Of a stretch of 64,000 nt of DNA, positions 51,864 through 63,648 are shown in pieces (position 1 is the first letter of the stretch; each line of letters starts with the position of its first letter). Below the pieces are notes generated by a model, which worked only from the letters and a program-made list of their open reading frames with translations, made no database searches and was not told the DNA's origin. Source of the stretch: an uncultured delta proteobacterium (GTDB lineage Bacteria; Myxococcota_A; Polyangia; Polyangiales; Polyangiaceae); assembly GCA_963850305.1 (NCBI GenBank), contig CAWKKR010000001.1:64001-128000 (forward strand), in the 5' to 3' direction. The position numbers and the translations under genes are program-made.

Positions 51864-54572
51864 GTGGCCGTCGTCGGCATCGACCTTGGAACGACGAACA
51901 CCGTGGTCGGCATTGCCCGCGACGGACAGGTCAGGGCCATCCGCGATCCGGATGGCGAATATCTCATCCCTTCGGTCGTCTCGTTTCATCCGTCCGGCAA
52001 CATCCTGGTCGGACGCGCCGCAAAAGAACGTCGTGTCATAGACGCCGCGAACACCATTTATTCGATCAAGAGGCTCATCGGACGCAGCTGGAACTCAGAA
52101 GAGGTTGCGCATGCACGCGCACGCTTCCCGTTCGAAATGCGGGAGGGGCCGGGTCAGGCAGCGCTGGTCGTGGCGCGCACGGAGACGTTCACTTTGCCGG
52201 AGATCAGCGCCTTCGTCCTTCGGCATGCCAAGGCAGTCGCCGAAAAGAGCCTGGGCGAGCCCGTGGAACGCGCGGTCATCACGGTTCCCGCAAACTTCAA
52301 CGATCTCCAACGAGCGGCAACCAAGGTTGCCGGACGCGTCGCCGGACTCGAAGTCTTGAGAATCCTGAACGAACCCACGGCCGCCGCGCTGGCGTACGGA
52401 TACGGCAAGGGGAAAGGCGAGCGCATAGCAATCTACGACTTCGGAGGGGGCACCTTCGACGTCACCTTGCTGGATCTGTCAGGGAACGTTTTCGAAGTTT
52501 TGGCCACAGCCGGCAACACGTTCCTCGGCGGCGACGACGTCGACGTCGCGATCGCGGAGCGCATGGCTAACTCGTGTCTCGAGCGGCATCGCGTGGACGC
52601 GCGGGCGGATGCTCAGATCTTCGAACGTCTTCGCTACTACGCCGAGCAACTCAAGGTGGAGCTCTCGTCCGCGACCGAAGCGACCATCGACGTACCGGAT
52701 ATTGGTCACGACGCGAGCGGCAGGCCGATCCGGTTTTCGTTTGCGATGACTCGCGCCGAGCTCGATGCCCTCGCCGAGCCGATGGTGGCTCGCACGTTCG
52801 AAGTCTGCCAGGAGGCCATGAGCGTGGCGCGGCTCACACCAGAAAAGTTCGATCAGGTGGTCTTGGTGGGAGGTTCGACTCGTTTGCCGATAGTACGCCA
52901 CCGCGTTCTCGAACATTTCCACCGCGAGCCTCTCGACCGGATCAACCCAGACGAGGTCGTCGCAATCGGGGCCGCGATCCAGGCGAACGCACTCACCGGG
53001 CAGGAAAAGCGACGGAGTGTCATTCCGCGACCGCCCATGCCGGCCGCCCGCGCCGGCGATGACCGAAAGTCGCAGCCGCCGGCACGAGCCCGAAGCACCA
53101 ATCCCTTCTCGCCGAGTCCGCAGGGGCTCGCCCGGCCGAGCGACGCCAAGGTCGACGACCCGAGCGCGGGTCAACGCCGTCGGGTGATCACGGGCATGGG
53201 GCTAGGGCCTTCTCGTTCGTCGCGACCCCCGCCGTTGCCGGAGCGGAAGGGCGCGTCGAAGAAAAGAGGAGGGACGTGGGGCGGAGTCGGTGGCCCTTCC
53301 CCGTCCTTGCCCAAGCCCGGACAGACACTGCCAGAAGGGAGCGGCCATCGAGCGCCGACCTTCGACGAGGACCGGAAGTCGGAAGGGCTGCGGCGCACGA
53401 TTAGCTCGCGACCTGGCGCGCTCGACGAGCCCGGAAAGCCGATTAGCTCGCGACCCGACGCGCACGAGGCGCCGCGGAAACGCATGGGGTCGAGGCCCGA
53501 TGCGACGGAGTCAAGGTTCGACCTCGCCGACGAGCCGCTCACTGCCCCGATCGATCGGGGATTCGATCTCCCGACCCCTACCGTCCCGATACTTCCGGAC
53601 GACGAGATGACGACGGTCGGCTCGGCGCCGTTGGGCGGTGTCAATCACGAGGCGCCGACGCTCGATGGTTCCTGGGGTGCCGTCCCCGAGGAAGACGGCA
53701 GCGACGACGAGGTGACGTCGGCCGACCTACGGTTCGACAAGCTGCGACTACCCGCCCTGCCGCCGGCCAAGACGGACCTAGGTGGAACGCGCGTAGGCCT
53801 CGCGCCTCCGATCGAGGTCACGAGCCCGAAGGCTGGCGCGAGCGCAACTCCGCGCGGAGCTTCGGAGACGAACGGGGTCGACGACCAACCCAAAGCGGGC
53901 AGCCAAGGGCCGATAGGGGTACCGAGCCGACCCCATCCGACACGGAGCGGCCCGGCAGCGAACGAGCCTCCTGCGGATCTCGGCTTCGCACGCACCACCA
54001 TGCCGGAGACGCCACTCATCGCGAGGGGGCAGGCGGCTCTGCCGGTGAAGCCGCCGCTGGAACCCCGGATTGAACGAAACGCTGCGACGTTCACGTCTGC
54101 GACTCCCGACGCGCACCGGTTGTCCTTTTCCGAGGCGCCTGTCTCGCCAAGGCCCGTGCTACCGCTTCTCGTCGACGTTACTCCCCTCAGTCTGTGCGTG
54201 GAGACGGTACGCGGCTTTCATGACGTTATCATCGCGCGCAATACGCCCGTTCCCTGCGAACAGTCTCGCACCTTCGTCACGGCAACACACGGCCAAGAGA
54301 CGGTCCTCGTCCGCGTTGGCCAGGGAGAGGGCTCGCGTTTCGCGGAGAACACGCTCCTGGGCGAGGTGGAACTCTCCGGCCTCAGGCAGGCGACGCGCGG
54401 TGAAGTGCACATCGTCGTGACGTTCTCCCTCGACACCGACGGCGTGCTGAACGTGAAGGCAGCCGACGCCGAGACCGGCAAGGCCGCAACCGCACGCCTG
54501 AAGTTGGTCGGGCTGCCCGATGCGGAAGAAGTGGGCCGCATGACCGCACGCCACCTGCAGCGAACGCTATGA
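51864..54572 (+). CDS. Hsp70-family protein with large disordered insertion between NBD and SBD
   Basis: [37 protein letters not shown], then about 385 aa of Pro/Arg/Asp-rich insert, [10 protein letters not shown] and SBD-beta; essentially no lid. Confidence 0.9.
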
Positions 54573-55109
54573 GCACGGCGAAAGAAGAGCTAGAACGCCT
54601 GAGAGCGTGGGCCGAGGTGCTCGACGACTCGAGCTACTACGAATTGCTCGGCGTGCTCGACCTCGCTGATGGGGACGCCATCAAGACCGCGTTTCACGAG
54701 TTCGCCCTCGCGTTTCATCCGGACATTCACGTCGGGGGAACCGAGGAGACCAAGCACGTTGCCCGATGCGTTTTCCGGCGCGGAGCGGAAGCCTACCGCG
54801 TGCTGTCCGATCCGGCGCTCCGAGCCGAAATACGATCTCGCGCTCGCCGGAGGGTACTTGAGGCTCGTGGCCGGCGAACCGACGAGCCGCGCGCACGGCA
54901 AGGTCGCTCTCCAGTCGCTCGAAGACATTTGTAAAACTCCGGCGGCAAGGTCGTCGGCCAGGCGAGCTGACGACCTCATCGGGCAGGGGCGGCTTTCCGA
55001 AGCCCGGGCGGTGCTCAAGGACGCGCTCAGCCAGGAGGGTTATGAGAATCCGATCTTGGAGGACCGCATCGAGGCGCTCGACCTAGCGATCTTTGCGACC
55101 GGCGGCTAG
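54569..55109 (+). CDS. J-domain protein with C-terminal TPR-like helices; +1 frameshift at about 54829
   Basis: SYYELLGV...IKTAF...FHPD...[13 protein letters not shown], then extra A, then YDLAL continuing in ORF 54669..55109. Confidence 0.8.
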
Positions 55110-55377: not shown

Positions 55378-56730
55378 GTGAAGCTCTCCTGCCCCTCCTG
55401 TGCCGCCAAGTACTCCATCGCCGACGAGAAGGTTCAAGACCGACTCGCGAAGATTCGCTGCCGAAAGTGCAGCGCGACGATCATCGTCGACGGAAAAGTG
55501 GATCCGCCCAACGTCTACACTTCGGACACCGGCGCGGCTCCCGCTGCTGACTACGGGGACGGCGGCAACGACACCGGTGCCGGCGAATACTCGGTCGACT
55601 TCGGCGACAACGATCAGCGGTCGATGAGTCTCGACGACATCGTGCGCGCGTATCGCCGCGGGGAAATAACCGCGGACATGTACGTCTGGGCCGAAGGCAT
55701 GAGCGACTGGACGCCGATCTCGTCGGTGCCTGACATCATGGACGCACTCGGCGGCGGCGCACCCACCGCGGCAGCTCGGCAGGCCGCGCGCACCGGTGCC
55801 GGACGAGGCTCGGCGACCGATCTCTTCGGCGGAATCGATCGCGCGGGCAGTGAGGAAGACGTCATGACCAGCGCGCCGCACGGGCAAGCGGCGGCCGGCC
55901 TGGCCACTGGTGCACGGAACGAGTCGTCGGTGCTCTTCTCGCTGAGCGCGCTCACGGCGTCGGCACCCGCAGCGACGGCGCCCGCGCGCAGTGCCGTCGC
56001 GTCGGACGTCAAGGGTGACGACTCGGGCTTGATCGATCTCAAGGCACTCACCTCCACCGTCGGGAGCCAGCCGCCCCCCGGCCCGCTCGGGCTCGGCTCG
56101 GCGCCACTCGGACTCGGAGCGGCACCGCTCGGCATGGCCGCCCCGCTGGGCGGCATGACTGCGCCCGCCATGGCCGTCGACGGTCCGCTTCCAAGACCAC
56201 AGAGCAGCAAGACCGGTCTCTACATCGGGGGCGCGCTCGTCATTGTCGGCGCGCTCATTGCGGGCGCGATCGTCCTCAAACCGAGGGACGTCCCGAGCGC
56301 CGCAGCACCCCCTCCTGCCACAGCGCCCGTGGCCGTTGCGGCGACGGCGGCGCCCACGACCGAAGCCAAGAAAGACGAACCCACCGCCCAGCCTCCGGCA
56401 ACGGGCACCGCAGCAGTTGCCGACGCCCCCAAGGAGACCGCCGCGAAAGTGGCCGCCGCACCGTCGCATCACGCGCACTACGAGGGCAGGCCGCATTCCA
56501 GCGGGAGCAGCAAGAGTTCCGAGAGTTCATCGGGAAGCAGCAAGAGTTCCGAAACCTCGGGCTCCTCAAGTGGATCATCTGCCGCGTTCTCGGGCGGTTC
56601 GAACACGAGCGCGTCGAGCGGCAGTTCGGATTCGAGCGGTGGCGAGAAGAAGCACCACAAGAAGAAGGAAAAGAGCTGCAATTGCTCTCCTGGCGACCTC
56701 ATGTGCGCCATGCAGTGTGCGGCCAACTGA
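55378..56730 (+). CDS. GltJ/AgmX-like protein: zinc ribbon, GYF_2, TM, Ser-rich linker, Cys tail
   Basis: CPSCAAKY.I.DEK....K.RCRKC; TADMYVWAEGMSDW GYF_2; RNESSVLFSL and DSGLIDL motifs; TM helix; terminal CNCSPGDLMCAMQC. Confidence 0.8.
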   Translation: MKLSCPSCAAKYSIADEKVQDRLAKIRCRKCSATIIVDGKVDPPNVYTSDTGAAPAADYGDGGNDTGAGEYSVDFGDNDQRSMSLDDIVRAYRRGEITADMYVWAEGMSDWTPISSVPDIMDALGGGAPTAAARQAARTGAGRGSATDLFGGIDRAGSEEDVMTSAPHGQAAAGLATGARNESSVLFSLSALTASAPAATAPARSAVASDVKGDDSGLIDLKALTSTVGSQPPPGPLGLGSAPLGLGAAPLGMAAPLGGMTAPAMAVDGPLPRPQSSKTGLYIGGALVIVGALIAGAIVLKPRDVPSAAAPPPATAPVAVAATAAPTTEAKKDEPTAQPPATGTAAVADAPKETAAKVAAAPSHHAHYEGRPHSSGSSKSSESSSGSSKSSETSGSSSGSSAAFSGGSNTSASSGSSDSSGGEKKHHKKKEKSCNCSPGDLMCAMQCAAN

Positions 56731-56746: not shown

Positions 56747-59197
56747 TCAGAACGCGAGCGGCGCTGGAACCGCCAGCCGAACGGGTCCGGCTGGCGCCGC
56801 GAATTCGTAAACGCTGCCTCGACGATCGGTGAGACCGAGTCGCACGAACCCGTCGGCACGAACGAGGGCGAAAGGAGCGAGCGGCGCCGGCTCGGATTCG
56901 CCCTCCGGGACGACATAAACGCTCAGGGGCGCAAACTTGGATGGTAGCGGGGCGCTCGAATCCGCGCAGTACGCCGCGACGGATGTCGTGCCCTCCTCGA
57001 CGGCGCATCGCGAAAGCGCGGCCGCATCTTGCCGGACATCGAGAGACGGAACGGTGTGGATCAATCGAGCCGCTTCTCGTCGGACGAGGACGGCTGGGTC
57101 GCGTGCGAGCAGCGAGCGTTCCGCGGATGGACATCGCGATCGTGACGCGAGAAGCCCCGCGAGGGCGTTCACGCGCACGTACTCCCGATCCGAATCCAGC
57201 GACGCGCATAGTTGCTTCGTGACGGGGACTCCGCGGGCGCCCAGACGTCCGAGCGAAGCTGCGGAATCTCCGCCCACGGCGACATTGGTGTCGAAAAGCA
57301 AGCTCGCGATGAGGGGCACTTGCTCGGCGCCCCCAGCAGCTCCGAGCGACCAGACAGCGTTGGCGCGCACCGATGCATCGTTATCCCGGGCCAGCAGGAG
57401 GAGAGTCGTCAGCGCTTCCGGATGAGCGGCGAGCGCCTCCGCGATCTTCGCGCGCGTCGGAGTATCGGCCCCGGGAAGCAGTCGGATGAGTGCGTCGCTT
57501 CCGAGCGCACCCCCGACGGCTCCCAGCGCCTCGATCAACGCATCTGCATCTGCTCCGGTCGCAACAGGGATGAGGGAAAGGGCCCGATTCACGACGCGGC
57601 GGTCCTCCGTGGCGGACAGAGCGCCGACGAGCGCGACGCCGATCGCACCTCGATCCTGGTCGGCGGAACGCTCGAAGCGATCCAGCAGAAGACCCGCTGT
57701 GGCCGCCGACGCAGTCCGCCGCAGGGATAGCGCGGCGGCGCGTCGAACCGCAGCGTGTTCGTCGTCAAGAGCAGCAAGCAAGGGAGCATCCTGCCCGGAC
57801 CGACCGAGAAACCCCAGCGCCTGAATGGCGACGAGCCGGAGCGAAGTATCCGTCGCGTCGCGTGTCAGTGCGGAAAGGACGGGGATCGCCCGAGGTGAAC
57901 CCGTCCGCCCGAGGAGCGCGACGAGCGAGGCTCGCTCCGCGCGACGCGCGTGGGCGGCGTCTAGCGCCCGAAGAATGGGCTCCACGGCACGTCCGTCCGG
58001 GACCTCCGGCTCGAGAAGCGCCGTGGCGGCGTCGACGGCCGCGTGCCGTACGCGCGGGTCGTCCGAGCGGAGGGACTCGAGCACGAGACCGAGTTCCCTC
58101 GAATCACGCGAGCGGCCGATCGCATCGAGAGCAATCTCGGTTTTCACGGCGCCGCGCCGCAGGCCGTCGGCGACCGCGTCGACTGCAGCCTGTGTTCCGA
58201 TCTCGCCCAAGGCGAGCACGCATCCATCCGTCCGATCGAACGCCGATCGAACTCGAACGCATTCGATCAGAGTCGGCACGGCCCGGTCCCCGGCATGCAC
58301 GAGAGCCGCCCGACCCGGCGATGCCGCGCGCGGATCGTCCCCTCGAAGCGTTTGCACCAGAGCATCGAGCCCCGCTTGTGACGGGATGCTGCCGAGTGCC
58401 GCCAGCGCAGCCTGACGGACGAGTGGCCGCCGCTCCTCCGCGAGGAGCGCAACGATGGTGCCCACGGCTTCCTCGGCATGCAGGCGACTTAGCGCCGTCA
58501 GCACGGCGATGCGCACGTTCTCGTCGGGGTCGCGTAACATGAGGGTCAGCGCACTCGCAGCACGCGCATCCCCGAGTTCGCCAAGTGCCATCGCGACGCT
58601 CCGGCGCACGCCAGGTCTTGGGTCCTGACTCTTCCCAACGAGGGGGACGACAGCTCCGAGATCCCCGATACGCGCGAGCGCGGTGGTCACGGCCTCGCGA
58701 ACGTCCGCGTCGGTGTCGTCGAGGCGCCCCAGTAGAGGCACCACCGCACTCTTTGCGCCGGATGCCCCGAGCGCGCGAGCGGCGGCGACGCGAACGGAGG
58801 GCTCTTGGTCGCCGAGAATTCTTCCGAGCGCGCCTACGGCGTCATTCACTGGATCGCGAGCCAGGGCGGCGGCGGCGGCGCGGCGGATGCGGGCATCGGG
58901 ATCGCCCAACCACGAAATGACACGCCGTCCGAGTCCATCGACCCGATCTTCGATGAGCGCGTCGAGCGCTGCGATACGAACGTCGGGATCCGGATCATCG
59001 AGGGCCGGCAACGCGATGCGCCGGAGCGACGCCCGAGGCATCGCGCTGAGCCTCCGCGCGGCGTTCCGTCGCACCCCGACATCTGGCGCGGACAGATCAC
59101 GAGCGGTCGCATCGATGGTGCTCGGCCAGACGAATGCCTCCGCCCCTGGAGCTCCCAGGCAGACCGCGACGATCAAACTCGAGAGCACAAGACGCAT
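56747..59197 (-). CDS. exported HEAT/PBS-lyase repeat protein
   Basis: Signal peptide ending AEA|F, followed by more than 15 repeats of the LxDxDxxVRxxAAxALGxIG type. Confidence 0.88.
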   Translation of the reverse strand: MRLVLSSLIVAVCLGAPGAEAFVWPSTIDATARDLSAPDVGVRRNAARRLSAMPRASLRRIALPALDDPDPDVRIAALDALIEDRVDGLGRRVISWLGDPDARIRRAAAAALARDPVNDAVGALGRILGDQEPSVRVAAARALGASGAKSAVVPLLGRLDDTDADVREAVTTALARIGDLGAVVPLVGKSQDPRPGVRRSVAMALGELGDARAASALTLMLRDPDENVRIAVLTALSRLHAEEAVGTIVALLAEERRPLVRQAALAALGSIPSQAGLDALVQTLRGDDPRAASPGRAALVHAGDRAVPTLIECVRVRSAFDRTDGCVLALGEIGTQAAVDAVADGLRRGAVKTEIALDAIGRSRDSRELGLVLESLRSDDPRVRHAAVDAATALLEPEVPDGRAVEPILRALDAAHARRAERASLVALLGRTGSPRAIPVLSALTRDATDTSLRLVAIQALGFLGRSGQDAPLLAALDDEHAAVRRAAALSLRRTASAATAGLLLDRFERSADQDRGAIGVALVGALSATEDRRVVNRALSLIPVATGADADALIEALGAVGGALGSDALIRLLPGADTPTRAKIAEALAAHPEALTTLLLLARDNDASVRANAVWSLGAAGGAEQVPLIASLLFDTNVAVGGDSAASLGRLGARGVPVTKQLCASLDSDREYVRVNALAGLLASRSRCPSAERSLLARDPAVLVRREAARLIHTVPSLDVRQDAAALSRCAVEEGTTSVAAYCADSSAPLPSKFAPLSVYVVPEGESEPAPLAPFALVRADGFVRLGLTDRRGSVYEFAAPAGPVRLAVPAPLAF

Positions 59198-59269
59198 GCG
59201 CCACGGAGCTTACATCACCACGCGGCGCGCGCTCCTCCTGCGCGCAGACGATGGCCCCGCGAGGCACCG

Positions 59270-61171
59270 CTATTCGGCGTCGCTGGGGGCGAGCGCCGCC
59301 CGCGGGGAGCTGCGGAGCATCGTCCGACGCGAGAGCACCCGTTCGAAGGCCCTGGCGCACCGGGCATTTTGCTCCTGCGTCCCTACCGTCACACGCACGA
59401 AACGCTTGGTCGCATGATGAACCTCGAGCGACCGAATCAAGATGCCCTCCGCCAACACCGATGCGACGAAATCCGCGGCTGAAGTCCCCGTCGCCGAGAT
59501 GTCCACGAGCACGAAATTGCCGTCGCTCGGCAGCACCGAGACCCCCGCAAGGGTCTCCAGCCGCGCCACGAGCTCCGCGCGCCCGGCCTTGAGCGCGTCC
59601 ACTCGGGTCTCGAATTCGGCAACGTCGTCCAGCGCAGCTTCCGCTGCCGCCAGCGTCACCGACGGAACGTTCCACGGGATCTTCACGCGCGACAGGAGCT
59701 CGATCACCGCCGAGTGACCGAGCGCGTACCCAAGCCTCATGCCCGCGAGCCCGAACGCCTTCGAGAACGTCCGCAGCAGTATCATGTTCGGGTAGTCGCG
59801 CAGAAGACGCGCGAAGCTTTGCGCATCCCCAAGCTCCACATATGCCTCGTCGACGACCGTCGGCAGACCGAGCCCCAGGATGCGCCGAAGATCGGTCTCT
59901 CCGATGCCGTTGCCGGTCGGGTTGTTCGGCGTGCAGAGGAAGACGATCTTCGTCCGCTCGGTGACGGCGCGGATGAGACTGCCCACGTCGTGATCGTGAT
60001 CGTCGGTCATCGAAACGATCACCGGAATGCCGCCGACGACCCGGGTTCTCGCTTCGTACATGCTGAACGTCGGTACACTCAGCAGCACCTCCTCGCCCGG
60101 ACCGACGAAGGTGCGAATCACCAAATCGATGAGCTCGGTCGAGCCCATCCCGAGCAGCACGTTCGACGCCTCCAGACCATCTCGCCCCGCGATCTTGGAC
60201 TTCAGGCGGGCGCCGTTCGGTGGATAGTGATTTGCGTTGGTGGCTGCGTCGACGATCGCGCGGATCACGCGCGGACTCGGCGAATATGGGCTCTCGTTCG
60301 ACATCATCCGCAGGACGTCGCCCCGCTCGGCAATGGCGAAATGTCCCTCGTTATACGGCTTCGCCGCCCGGACCCAGCTCGGCGCGAAGAGCTCCACGCT
60401 GTCGGGCTGCACGGCCCCACCGCTCCCCGGCTCGTCGCCCAGCGCGTCGCCGAACACCCGGATCATCGCCTCGGCGCGGTCCATCGCTTCGGGAGTGTCC
60501 ACGTCGATCCAGCGCGCGTCCCCGACGTCGCACGCGAAGAATGCACCCTTCGCCGCGAGCGCACGAACGCCCTCGGAAAGCGAGGCGTCGCCCATCCTGG
60601 CGACGACCTCCTCGAGCTCGCGTACGAGCGCCGGCCCGATCCGGAACACGCCCGTGTCGATCGCGTCGTATTCCGGCAGTTCCTTCCCGATCTCGGCGAT
60701 GCGTCCCTTCTGCGTCACGACCTTCGTCGCGTCGTCGAGGTCGAAGCAGCGCGCGATGTCGCGATCGACGCCCAGCGCGCATGCACCCTTCGGCAGCTCG
60801 GCCGCGAGCAGCCGGCGCGGAAGCTCTGGCGAGTAAAGGTGGTCCGACATCGTCAGCAGGCAGTCGCCGTCGATGAATTCCTTCGCTGCGAGCAGAGAGA
60901 CGCCGTTCTTGGCGTGGAAGTTCGGATTCTCGACGAAGCGAATTTCGAGTCCGAGCCCCGACGCCGTCTGAAGCGCACGTCGTACAACGTCGCCGCGATG
61001 CCCCAGCACGACGACCGCTTCTCGAATCCCGACCTCTTCGAGGGTGCGGAGGACTCTCACCAGCAACGGGATGCCGCTCACTGCACGCACCGGCTTCGGG
61101 ACCTGGCCGTTCAGCCGTGAGCCGAGCCCAGCCGCCAGTACGATCGCCCGGGTGACACGCCTGTCTCTCAT
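59270..61171 (-). CDS. fusion: IPCT-like cytidylyltransferase + HisC-like class I/II PLP enzyme
   Basis: N-half AIVLAAGLGSRL..PKP, NGVSLL, MSDHLY, DATKV, IGKEL..YD.IDTG.F, WIDVDT. C-half SNESPY, PNNPTG, VDEAY, RTFSKAFGLAGMRLGY, RVTVG. Confidence 0.9.
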   Translation of the reverse strand: MRDRRVTRAIVLAAGLGSRLNGQVPKPVRAVSGIPLLVRVLRTLEEVGIREAVVVLGHRGDVVRRALQTASGLGLEIRFVENPNFHAKNGVSLLAAKEFIDGDCLLTMSDHLYSPELPRRLLAAELPKGACALGVDRDIARCFDLDDATKVVTQKGRIAEIGKELPEYDAIDTGVFRIGPALVRELEEVVARMGDASLSEGVRALAAKGAFFACDVGDARWIDVDTPEAMDRAEAMIRVFGDALGDEPGSGGAVQPDSVELFAPSWVRAAKPYNEGHFAIAERGDVLRMMSNESPYSPSPRVIRAIVDAATNANHYPPNGARLKSKIAGRDGLEASNVLLGMGSTELIDLVIRTFVGPGEEVLLSVPTFSMYEARTRVVGGIPVIVSMTDDHDHDVGSLIRAVTERTKIVFLCTPNNPTGNGIGETDLRRILGLGLPTVVDEAYVELGDAQSFARLLRDYPNMILLRTFSKAFGLAGMRLGYALGHSAVIELLSRVKIPWNVPSVTLAAAEAALDDVAEFETRVDALKAGRAELVARLETLAGVSVLPSDGNFVLVDISATGTSAADFVASVLAEGILIRSLEVHHATKRFVRVTVGTQEQNARCARAFERVLSRRTMLRSSPRAALAPSDAE

Positions 61172-61403
61172 GGGATTCTCGCGCCCGCGACCTGGTAGCA
61201 CGCTCGTGGAAATCACGGCAAATCCTTTTCAGTTCAGATAGTTAGGTGACGGTGAAGCTGTCGCAGTCGAACCACACTGTCGTCATTTAGCTACACCAGA
61301 ACGCCCGGGACCGCGCCCCAGCGAAAGACCAGGTGTGATGCGCAAATATAATGATTTCAGTTATTTCCATGGCAAACAGGCCGGTCAACCCGGCCAGCCA
61401 TTA

Positions 61404-61419
61404 AGCAAGCCGGATGCCA
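61404..61419 (-). promoter_or_regulatory. sigma54 promoter upstream of the fusion gene
   Basis: Minus strand TGGCATCCGGCTTGCT = TGGCA-N6-TTGCT with exact consensus spacing. Confidence 0.75.
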
Positions 61420-61545
61420 ATGCCCGGTGCGTCAACCATTTCGCACCTCGCGGTGCCGATCGCGGCTTTTCCCTGACGTCAACGTCACATGCCGCGCATG
61501 GCCGCTCGGACCCTGTTGCACCTCGGCAACACCGTGCCCGGAATG

Positions 61546-62274
61546 TCAGTGCGAAAAGAGTTCCCTCGCTTGATCCAGATCCTCGAGCGAATCCACTTCG
61601 CACCAGCGAAGCCCGGTGATGTCCACCGCCCTGACGCGTGCTCCGCGCAGGATCAGTCGGGAATACACGTCCTCGTAGTAGAGGTGGGTGTCGCCCGCGG
61701 CGCGCGCGCCGTCGAGAGCGTCAAAGAGCTCCTCGCAAGCGCTGGAGTCTATTCGCTCGATCCCGATGCTTTCGCCCCCACTCTCGGACAGCGGAATCCC
61801 TTTCCCGAAGGCGGCGATGTCCTGGCTACCACGCTCGAGACGCACCTTCATTGCCTCGTCGTCGAGCTTTCGCTCTCGGTCGACAGCAGCGGAGATGTAG
61901 GCGGAGCTCGAATTCAATCGCGAAAGAATCTCCGCGTCGAAAACGACATCGCCGTCGAGTCGAAAAAAGGAATCGCCACCGACGGCATCACGACAGAGCG
62001 CCAGCGAAACCGAGTTTTGCGTCGCCGCGTAGTCGGGATTCGGGCAAAAAGTGACCTCCAGCGACGACTCCGCGAGGGCATGTCGAAGCGCGTGCTCCTT
62101 GTAACCCGTGGCAACTACGAGCCTCGACACGCCCGCGCCGACCAGCGCGTCGACGGCTCTGGACAAAATCGTCCCGCTACCCAAGGGGACCAGAGGTTTC
62201 GGCCGGTCGTCAGTGAGCGGCCGAAGCCGGGAGCCGGTACCCGCAGCTAAGATCACGGCCAGACGAGTTGCCAT
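61546..62274 (-). CDS. phosphocholine cytidylyltransferase (LicC-like) family protein
   Basis: ILAAGTGSRLRPLT..PKPL, NPDY..TQNSVSL, DGD, EAMKV, GESIGI, YYED, WCEVD. Confidence 0.88.
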   Translation of the reverse strand: MATRLAVILAAGTGSRLRPLTDDRPKPLVPLGSGTILSRAVDALVGAGVSRLVVATGYKEHALRHALAESSLEVTFCPNPDYAATQNSVSLALCRDAVGGDSFFRLDGDVVFDAEILSRLNSSSAYISAAVDRERKLDDEAMKVRLERGSQDIAAFGKGIPLSESGGESIGIERIDSSACEELFDALDGARAAGDTHLYYEDVYSRLILRGARVRAVDITGLRWCEVDSLEDLDQARELFSH

Positions 62275-62334
62275 CGGGAGATGGCGCGACGATTGCACAG
62301 TCCCCGGGATCTTGATAGGAGCCCGCACGAATCC

Positions 62335-63648
62335 ATGAAGCAGCCTGAACGCATTGGAAAGCCGCACGGCAAGCTTGCCGTGTTTTTGCCCGGCCTCGGA
62401 GCCGTGGCCACCACATTCATCGCGGGCTGCATGCTCGCCCGGAAGAGCAAGGCGTTACCCATCGGGTCACTCACCCAGATGGGCACCATCCGGCTCGGAA
62501 AGCGCACCGATAAACAGGCCCCTAAGATCAAAGACTTCGTGCCTCTCGCGTCGCTCGACGATCTGGAATTTTGCGCCTGGGACCTCTTCGCCGACAACGC
62601 CTACGAGGCGGCGGTGAAGGCAGAGGTTCTGGAAGCGCGACATCTCGACACCATCAAATCCGAGCTCGAGAGCGTGGTGCCGAAGCCCGCGGTCTTTTAC
62701 ACGGAGTACGTCAAACGGTTGAGCGGGTCGCACGTCAAGAAGGGTGCAACCAAAGCAGACATGGTCGAAGCCCTGCGCGAAGACATTCGCACGTTCATGA
62801 AGGAGCGCGGGTGTGCTCGCGCGGTCACAGTGTGGTGCGGCTCGACTGAAATTTATCTCCAGGCGACCGCCGTGCACCAATCGATCGACGCGTTCGAGGC
62901 GGGGCTCCGTGCGAATGACGCGTCGATCTCGAGCTCGCAGATCTACGCTTGGGCGTGCATACTGGAGGGGGTTCCCTTTGCGAACGGCGCTCCGAACCTG
63001 TGTGTCGACTTTCCCGCAGCGCACGACCTAGCGAAGAAAACGAGGACGCCTATCTGCGGAAAGGACTTCAAGACCGGTCAGACTCTCATGAAAACGATCC
63101 TCGCGCCGGGTCTGAAGGCGCGGATGCTCGGGATCGACGGGTGGTTTTCTACGAACATCCTCGGCAACCGCGATGGAGAGGTGCTGGACGACCCAGATAA
63201 CTTCAAGACCAAGGAAGTCAGCAAGCTCAGCGTACTCGAGCACATCCTGCAACCGGAGACCTACCCCGATCTCTACGGCCACGTTTATCACAAGGTGACA
63301 ATCAACTATTACCCGCCCCGCGGTGACGCCAAGGAAGGGTGGGACAACGTGGATATCCGCGGCTGGCTCGGGTACCCGATGCAAATCAAGGTCGACTTCC
63401 TCTGTCGGGACTCCATCCTTGCTGCGCCCATCGTGCTGGATCTCGCGCTGTTCATGGACCTCGCGAAGCGTGCCGGGTTTCACGGGGTGCAGGAATGGCT
63501 CAGTTTCTATTTCAAGAGCCCGATGACGGCCGAGGGGCTCTACCCCGAGCATGATCTCTTCATTCAAAGCATGAAATTGAAAAACACGCTTCGCTGGATG
63601 ATGAACCACGAGCTCATCACCCACCTCGGCAACGAATATTACGACTGA
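62335..63648 (+). CDS. ino1: myo-inositol-1-phosphate synthase
   Basis: GLGAVATT, STE, ANGAPN, GKDFKTGQT, NILGNRDG, KEGWD, RDSILAAP, FYFKSP. Confidence 0.96.
   Translation: MKQPERIGKPHGKLAVFLPGLGAVATTFIAGCMLARKSKALPIGSLTQMGTIRLGKRTDKQAPKIKDFVPLASLDDLEFCAWDLFADNAYEAAVKAEVLEARHLDTIKSELESVVPKPAVFYTEYVKRLSGSHVKKGATKADMVEALREDIRTFMKERGCARAVTVWCGSTEIYLQATAVHQSIDAFEAGLRANDASISSSQIYAWACILEGVPFANGAPNLCVDFPAAHDLAKKTRTPICGKDFKTGQTLMKTILAPGLKARMLGIDGWFSTNILGNRDGEVLDDPDNFKTKEVSKLSVLEHILQPETYPDLYGHVYHKVTINYYPPRGDAKEGWDNVDIRGWLGYPMQIKVDFLCRDSILAAPIVLDLALFMDLAKRAGFHGVQEWLSFYFKSPMTAEGLYPEHDLFIQSMKLKNTLRWMMNHELITHLGNEYYD

Follow-up and report, generated by a model that had tools for sequence, protein, structure and literature searches.

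Parts of two papers report inositol lipids in myxobacteria (PMC9246714, PMC4587543), and in the literature searched we found no gene assignment for them. For Rhodothermus marinus, a secondary account in an extract of PMC4587543 describes an operon of ino1, IPCT (inositol-1-phosphate cytidylyltransferase) and BEPIS for ether inositol lipids. A putative CDP-inositol lipid cluster of Bacteroidota, unconfirmed there, consists of MIPS, an NTP transferase, a CDP-alcohol phosphatidyltransferase and a HAD protein (PMC9246714, in extract). Amino-alcohol phosphates are known from other systems: Cj1437 of Campylobacter jejuni converts dihydroxyacetone phosphate (DHAP) to serinol phosphate (PMC11800397, in extract), and the N-domain of Bradyrhizobium RtxA is a precedent for the same reaction (PMC3222319, in extract). 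Caulobacter CpgABCD, as far as an extract of PMC13228409 describes it, makes ceramide-phosphoglycerate with a LicC-fold cytidylyltransferase, a lipid kinase and a soluble CDP donor. Here we describe a locus in an uncultured delta proteobacterium of the Polyangiaceae (GCA_963850305.1, contig CAWKKR010000001.1, positions 64,001 to 128,000; this whole stretch of 64,000 nucleotides is called the window). It holds ino1, a second cytidylyltransferase gene and a gene in which an IPCT-like domain is fused to an aminotransferase dependent on pyridoxal phosphate (PLP). In the literature searched, mostly papers outside subscription, neither such a fusion nor an amine arm of the kind proposed below is reported, and the same holds for phosphatidylserinol and for the catabolism of serinol phosphate.

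We propose, with a probability of about 0.45, that a lipid head group is supplied from CDP-inositol and from a CDP-amino-alcohol, which is likely CDP-serinol, and that the locus would be the soluble half of this pathway. The product of ino1 and the N-domain of the fusion would make CDP-inositol. Transamination of a ketose phosphate would fall to the PLP domain, DHAP and serinol phosphate being the probable substrate and product, and the second cytidylyltransferase would use CTP to activate the amino-alcohol phosphate. Afterwards, a CDP-alcohol phosphotransferase of the membrane would transfer phospho-inositol and the phospho-amino-alcohol to a lipid alcohol, which may be a diacyl- or alkyl-glycerol, or ceramide. 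This transferase would be encoded in the operon in most relatives, and here by a paralogue on contig C2 or C4 of the source genome. Every substrate, product and acceptor in this pathway is one that we infer.

The gene set and its conservation

The ino1 gene (62335-63648, plus strand) encodes a myo-inositol-1-phosphate synthase of 437 residues (PF07994 E 2e-95, PF01658 E 7e-33), 54% identical to the synthase of a Prevotella inositol cluster. Divergent from it, with a 60 bp spacer (62275-62334) separating the two ATGs, lies a gene that we call L (61546-62274, minus strand), for a LicC/PntC-type cytidylyltransferase of 242 residues with a primary amino-alcohol phosphate as predicted substrate. 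Next on the minus strand is the fusion gene, 633 residues counted from the ATG (59270-61171). Residues 1-240 (60452-61171) form an IPCT-like cytidylyltransferase, predicted to synthesise CDP-inositol. Residues ~261-615 (59327-60391) belong to a distinct subfamily of HisC-like PLP aminotransferases, and are predicted to act as an amino-polyol-phosphate (serinol-phosphate) transaminase. This layout had been described in an earlier note made from the letters alone, and the reading frames and coordinates match it; the motifs quoted there are also present in the N-half (NGVSLLAAK, MSDHLY, ATKV..IGKEL..DTGVF, WIDVDT). A model of the fusion from 57 sequences (mean pLDDT 83) has two domains with a low-confidence linker between them, while a model of L from a single sequence reached a pLDDT of 41 and was not used.

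Species genomes were scanned for relatives, and 80 of the 170 that turned up were retained; all counts of fusion loci out of 80 refer to these, and their titles are mostly Polyangiaceae, Polyangiales or Myxococcales. Of 151 genomes of the family, 57, the source genome among them, have the full-length fusion, and three more have it in partial or split form. An assembly artefact was rejected, as the fusion is intact in 57 genomes. Sampled across the order, the PLP domain occurs in 7/23, 9/9 and 21/23 genomes of three families and in 0/95 elsewhere, so conservation of the fusion, on which the earlier note had let its proposal depend, extends to two further families. In a sample of the phylum, 5 of 250 other genomes have a match at E<1e-120, all in the same order. 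Mean identity to the source protein is nearly the same for the N-half (67%) and the PLP half (66%) over 71 fusions.

The partner genes recur as well. Within the fetched flank, ino1 is present in 63/80 loci and L in 65/80. A CDP-alcohol phosphotransferase gene (PF01066), here called P, stands in the same gene run in 56/80, directly after the fusion in 44 and before L in 12 more. Fusion, L and P occur together in 54/80, and several loci without all partners stop at contig edges. In the two other families the order P-L-fusion is seen in 16/18 loci, with ino1 nearby in 7. The P-L-fusion(-ino1) gene set is intact and conserved. At the source locus P is absent, and a gap of 72 bp (59198-59269) occupies what is its usual position in many relatives. 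The statement that the window has no CDP-alcohol transferase was correct, since none of the eight PF01066 matches of the genome falls within the 64 kb, but the enzyme is in the operon of most relatives, and this favours a lipid over a polymer.

When L or an L paralogue is displaced from the locus, a CDP-alcohol transferase is adjacent to it in 9/9 loci opened; therefore L and P behave as a module. The source genome has two paralogues of the P subfamily, on C2 (55900-57050) and C4 (487290-488350), 60% identical to each other. They group (support 1.0) with transferases that adjoin L paralogues in four other genomes. The C2 paralogue itself adjoins MMPL, radical-SAM and membrane-protein genes. 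Two other genomes of the same genus do have a P orthologue. The nearest annotated relatives of P are CDP-alcohol phosphatidyltransferases of Bacteroidota. Four relatives of P in a plasmid collection were opened: two lie in clusters of ino1, NTP transferase and HAD genes, which represent the putative CDP-inositol lipid route of PMC9246714, and a third in a block of NTP transferase and HAD genes with ino1 not in view; the fourth is taken up below.

Predicted activities

The best PDB match of the N-half is the IPCT of Archaeoglobus fulgidus, 2xme (E 1.3e-27), followed by 4mnd and 4jd0 (E 8e-16), and nucleotidyltransferases other than IPCT match at E>=3e-8. Residues M108, D110, H111, K150 and K163 are invariant in 71/71 fusions. 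The amine-binding acids of PntC and LicC are absent from both the N-domain and IPCT. By sequence the domain is IPCT-like, as the earlier note had proposed from its motifs. The family model of the bifunctional IPCT/DIPPS, NF041135, covers residues 8-237 of the fusion with 133.7 bits; a bifunctional enzyme of this kind was rejected, as the cut-off is 580 and the C-half is a PLP enzyme and not a CDP-alcohol transferase. The N-domain occurs in 71/151 genomes of the family and 68 of these 71 also carry ino1. In most relatives ino1 lies near the fusion, as does, again in most, a CDP-alcohol phosphotransferase; at the source locus P is missing. We consider it likely that the N-domain and ino1 make CDP-inositol.

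In 11 genomes the N-domain is found without the PLP domain; one of these genes ends at a contig edge and two are more distant (44-47%). Several of them retain a remnant of the first residues of the PLP domain or the last residues of the fusion, which suggests secondary deletion of the PLP domain. Their neighbours include ino1, other CDP-alcohol transferases, diacylglycerol (DAG)/ceramide-kinase-like, MMPL transporter, HAD and glycosyltransferase genes. Such neighbours speak for a lipid product, and for a role with inositol that does not need the PLP domain.

The C-half scores 311 bits against the hisC model TIGR01141 (cut-off 276.55) and 190 bits against the CobD model TIGR01140 (cut-off 290.55). 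Its motifs are of HisC type, and the CobD motifs HGG, DFS-N-NP, RSLTK and RxAxR are missing. Passing TIGR01141 is, however, not specific for HisC, because P0127, a stand-alone sister in a catabolic operon, also passes it with 286 bits. None of the 71 fusions varies at any of the PLP- and phosphate-binding residues checked; K471, D441, Y444, N417, R479, R580, R593, Y273 and Y316 are invariant in 71/71, and the model of the domain matches HisC folds (TM ~0.89 by target). The imidazole-binding positions of HisC from Mycobacterium tuberculosis (Mtb) are Asn103, Tyr127, Met129 and Tyr261 (PMC4703992, in extract). At these positions the PLP domain has T/A/S345, F369, M371 and W500, that is, not a polar pocket. 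Phe at the second position is also frequent in ordinary HisC-like proteins.

Trees were built with FastTree, where representatives shorter than 300 residues (of 150) were excluded, and then with IQ-TREE on 50 sequences. In the latter, the fused PLP domains and the stand-alone enzymes group together (SH-aLRT 91.4, UFBoot 95), apart from both local HisC proteins, from Klebsiella CobD and from a CobD-like fusion of the source genome. This last gene (C8:30546-32153) is another fusion of nucleotidyltransferase and PLP enzyme, of CobD-like and not HisC-like type, and adjoins methyltransferase, ABC transporter and ATP-grasp genes. No hit to the CobD family model was above cut-off in 61 genomes of the phylum. 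Among plasmid records there is no close relative of the PLP domain; the best matches are HisC-like genes of ~37% identity.

Two further hisC genes of the source genome score above cut-off, one of them in a pheA-hisC-aroA-cmk operon. The fusion as sole hisC of the genome, which the earlier note had named, together with turnover of histidinol phosphate only, as fatal to its proposal, is rejected. Further, 9/60 carriers of the PLP domain (86-98% complete) have no hisD match, two of these absences being read from non-appearance in the match list. The four tested carriers without hisD also lack a match to imidazoleglycerol-phosphate dehydratase, and in them the fusion is the only hisC above cut-off. 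Thus genomes that seem to have lost the histidine pathway still keep the domain, which is probably not the histidine enzyme. In the family as a whole, 25/151 genomes are without a hisD match (among them G036, G048, G049, G050, G073, G075, G077, G114 and G115), which suggests repeated histidine auxotrophy.

For L, a profile of 32 sequences matches PntC 6pd1 (E 4e-27) and LicC 1jyk (E 8e-27) best. Asp107 and the Glu of a YYE motif are invariant and align with Glu104/Glu196 of PntC and Asp105/Asp192 of LicC. In PntC these two acids bind the primary amine, and LicC has an aromatic box for choline (PMC6697681, in extract). Both acids are present in L, and the suggestion that a second cytidylyltransferase acts on an amino-alcohol phosphate is to this extent borne out at the level of residues. 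Ala141 of L occupies the position of the Trp in the EW motif of LicC, a residue that presumably belongs to choline binding. The source genome, 95% complete, has no match to choline kinase (PF01633) or to phosphoenolpyruvate (PEP) mutase (TIGR02320), so neither offers another supplier of amine phosphate; phosphonate or choline tailoring was rejected on the same grounds. L accompanies the PLP domain in 52/60 genomes (as a close orthologue in 44 and as a paralogue in 8); it is present in 3/11 with the N-domain only and in 0/80 with neither, kin not being independent in these counts. An amine arm that links the PLP domain to L is what we think probable.

Among 1.84 billion representatives searched there are stand-alone relatives of the PLP domain, annotated as hisC, that have the same distinctive lid motif. 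The named members of one sister branch are Anaerolineales (3/120 rows). Their neighbourhoods were counted in the 80 best metagenome loci (L155-L234). Here transaldolase-like genes (44/80), phosphonate-type ABC permeases (41/80), alanine dehydrogenase (29/80), FAD demethylase-like genes (17/80), class II ketose-bisphosphate aldolase (12/80) and HAD phosphatase (8/80) are found, and one or other of the transaldolase-like and aldolase genes in 54/80. The operon also holds PhnS2/T2/U2-like ABC transporter genes, a GntR regulator, and genes that we take to be CbbY-like HAD and transketolase-like. We infer that the sisters take the amino group off an amino-polyol phosphate, with a ketose phosphate as the product. 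HisC chemistry turns a 2-keto-1-phosphate into a 2-amino-1-phosphate, and DHAP and serinol phosphate are therefore the simplest pair. In four fusion loci (L079, L084, L085, L086) a glycerol-kinase-like gene stands in place of L and P, and three of these four also have a HisJ-like PHP phosphatase (4/80 and 3/80 loci); these variants would also fit a C3 amino-alcohol. The choice of serinol phosphate in particular is tentative, a little short of an even chance. Of the two amino-alcohol options in the earlier note, the serinol-phosphate transaminase type is favoured and decarboxylation to ethanolamine phosphate disfavoured (TIGR01140, motifs, tree).

The product and competing explanations

We lean towards a lipid as the product. 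Whether it would be one lipid with both units or two lipids, the locus data fit either. Ceramide is a possible acceptor, because the source genome holds a serine-palmitoyltransferase-like gene, below cut-off, and a DAG/ceramide-kinase-like gene (C1:180362-181363) that shares 65% identity with its counterpart next to ino1 in N-only loci. The latter adjoins GT2 and methyltransferase genes. A second, distant ino1-like gene (31% identical) lies at C8 ~124000-129600, where the frames look broken; it adjoins inositol monophosphatase and MMPL genes, and a gene for what we take to be a DegT-like aminotransferase.

A number of observations weigh against the proposal. In nine of the 80 loci, L and P are both missing beside ino1 and the fusion. 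No P orthologue is found at E<=1e-35 in the source genome or one congener, 16/60 genomes with the PLP domain have no P match, and the C2 and C4 paralogues are only 33-40% identical to P. The fourth plasmid-collection relative of P (NZ_OY725759.1, Parabacteroides) has a TagD-like gene, an SDR gene and a lysophospholipid acyltransferase gene as neighbours and no inositol genes; this block is possibly a CDP-polyol lipid pathway. The best PDB sequence match of the PLP domain is the Mtb aromatic aminotransferase 4r2n. In three carriers (94, 76 and 83% complete) hisD is present and the fusion is accompanied by no second hisC that passes the cut-off, so that a back-up HisC role is possible. The PLP domain has been lost from one genome (G012) that keeps ino1, L, the N-domain and P. 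A single lineage accounts for 54 of the 80 sister loci counted, and the sister genes would agree as well with a longer amino-alditol phosphate. The NTP transferases of the Bacteroidota clusters form a distant clade (E ~1e-5 to the N-domain), and Cj1437, Cj1436 and RtxA, PLP enzymes for amino-alcohol phosphates, are likened to the PLP domain by reaction and not by alignment.

If the product is not a lipid, P might join the CDP-amino-alcohol to inositol-1-phosphate, giving a soluble phosphodiester that is an amine analogue of glycerophospho-inositol, or it might make di-myo-inositol phosphate. The closest solved relatives of the N-domain serve the synthesis of that solute, rows 3-5, 7 and 9 of the Atlas structure search are clusters named IPCT/DIPPS, and the top PDB match of P is, weakly, Af2299 (E 3e-7). 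A single operon with one transferase and two potential substrates would suit such a product, as a sigma-54 motif upstream of the fusion (see below) would suit a stress or development response. However, P is closer to the Bacteroidota transferases adjoining lipid genes, the N-only loci are surrounded by lipid-kinase-like and MMPL genes, and no phosphatase is among the annotated recurrent neighbours apart from the HisJ-like one in 3/80 loci, so that we regard a solute as unlikely. A decoration of surface polysaccharide or protein by the CDP donors would agree with the glycosyltransferase genes that flank some loci and with PntC and LicC, which serve surface tailoring (PMC6697681, in extract). 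Yet the constant partner is a PF01066 transferase, with no LicD or TagF family among the annotated neighbours, and we find this very improbable.

Other explanations concern the amine arm. The inositol arm could act alone (ino1, IPCT and a CDP-alcohol transferase giving an inositol lipid), with the PLP domain as a passenger, an aromatic aminotransferase or a back-up HisC. The domain's hisC score, its match to 4r2n and a pocket (T345/F369/M371/W500) more hydrophobic than the N/Y/M/Y of Mtb HisC can be read in this way, as can its deletion from several N-only genes that keep remnants and the three hisD genomes with no other hisC above cut-off. Its retention in nine genomes without hisD, its clade separate from both local HisC proteins and the way in which L tracks it argue the opposite, as does a fusion kept in three families at an identity equal to that of the N-domain; we hold this view to be rather unlikely. 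A decarboxylase of the CobD/Cj1436 type would instead turn phosphoserine into ethanolamine phosphate, from which L and P would build phosphatidylethanolamine or ceramide phosphoethanolamine in the manner of the Kennedy pathway. The acids of L suit ethanolamine phosphate, Cj1436 is a precedent, and T345 and W500 resemble the GxTE and PW positions of CobD. This is nevertheless quite improbable in view of the TIGR01140 score, the missing CobD motifs and the grouping away from Klebsiella CobD and the genome's own CobD-like fusion, and the sister operons, with alanine dehydrogenase and aldolases, look like amino-group removal. To the same small degree we credit a longer amine, either a 2-amino-alditol-1-phosphate or an amino-cyclitol phosphate made from inositol phosphate and passed between the fused domains. 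The fusion could imply such channelling, and the transaldolase-like, CbbY-like and transketolase-like genes of the sister operons point to longer chains, but no dehydrogenase recurs in the operon, and the N-domain has no amine-binding acids and persists beside ino1 without the PLP domain.

With CDP-inositol and a CDP-amino-alcohol as predicted head-group donors, the operon provides testable gene candidates for the myxobacterial inositol lipids, with soluble, assayable enzymes. If the amine arm is true, a new lipid head group is predicted, and a family named histidinol-phosphate aminotransferase in databases would be corrected. This correction would take in the widespread uncharacterised catabolic operon around the stand-alone sisters, which carry a hisC annotation. 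The fullest version of the proposal is doubtful: an undescribed membrane lipid of Polyangiales with both phospho-inositol and phospho-serinol, built from two soluble CDP donors that a single operon provides, a PLP domain belonging to an unrecognised subfamily of serinol-phosphate (amino-polyol-phosphate) transaminases misannotated as hisC, and stand-alone members that define a catabolic pathway in uncultured bacteria including Anaerolineales.

Upstream motifs, neighbours and known systems

A sigma-54-type promoter motif, TGGCA-N6-TTGC (61405-61419, minus strand), lies ~235 nt upstream of the fusion start and is preceded by TGACGCA (61428-61434, minus strand); the consensus is what we take to be that of sigma-54. 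Such a motif is found up to 420 nt from the start in 28/76 loci of the family, against 0.18 expected from shuffles, and in 0/18 loci of the two other families. The whole genome has 29 sites of this type, and rpoN is present. Judged from these letters, the fusion may have its own promoter. Two further conserved boxes on the minus strand, ACA[C/G]TGTG (61273-61280; 43/76 loci, 0.9 expected) and AAAAGGATTTG (61219-61229; 30/76 loci, 0.04 expected), are possibly a second promoter or a regulator site. A scan for sigma-70 promoters and terminators gave nothing above chance.

Directly downstream of the fusion is a gene for a HEAT-repeat protein of 816 residues (56747-59197, minus strand), syntenic in ~51/80 loci of the family. 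It was rejected as a pathway member, as the two other families do not have it among their recurrent neighbours. Elsewhere in the window, 51864-54934 (plus strand) encodes an Hsp70 with a long proline-rich insert and then a J-domain gene, where the frame seems to change near 54900, and 55378-56730 (plus strand) a zinc-ribbon/GYF protein.

In comparison with known systems, the logic of ino1, IPCT and CDP-alcohol transferase is common to the R. marinus operon and the myxobacterial locus, and A. fulgidus IPCT/DIPPS (2xme, 4mnd) provides the best solved match of the N-domain, with common motifs. IPCT is here fused to a PLP aminotransferase and not to the membrane transferase, and only the myxobacterial locus has a second, amine-type cytidylyltransferase. 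The Bacteroidota cluster has transferases 25-28% identical to P over its length and an ino1 product 54% identical to the one here, but it contains a HAD protein and no PLP enzyme or L.

On the amine side, the serinol phosphate of the Cj1437 and RtxA systems ends up in an amide bond with a capsule sugar or goes into rhizobitoxine, and is not CDP-activated. Treponema 6pd1 (PntC-AEPT) is also a fusion of cytidylyltransferase and aminotransferase, and L keeps both of its amine-binding acids; there, however, a class V aminotransferase sits on an amine-type cytidylyltransferase, whereas here a class I/II enzyme sits on an inositol-type one. Further, the PEP mutase or choline kinase of PntC and LicC systems has no match in the source genome. 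The cytosine motif T-x-N-x-x-S/T of CpgD is kept in L by CpgD numbering. In the extract consulted, CpgD uses a phosphoglycerate substrate and has Asn110 where L, by numbering and not by alignment, appears to have Asp107, and its pathway is described with neither an inositol arm nor an amine arm. With HisC and the Mtb aromatic aminotransferase Rv3772 the PLP domain has in common the fold and the PLP- and phosphate-binding residues. It differs from HisC in that Thr/Ala/Ser and Trp replace the Asn and Tyr on the imidazole side, in a distinct lid motif, in its separate clade and in being kept without hisD. Taken together, the inositol arm resembles the known Rhodothermus and Bacteroidota routes, while the amine arm is a predicted new branch.

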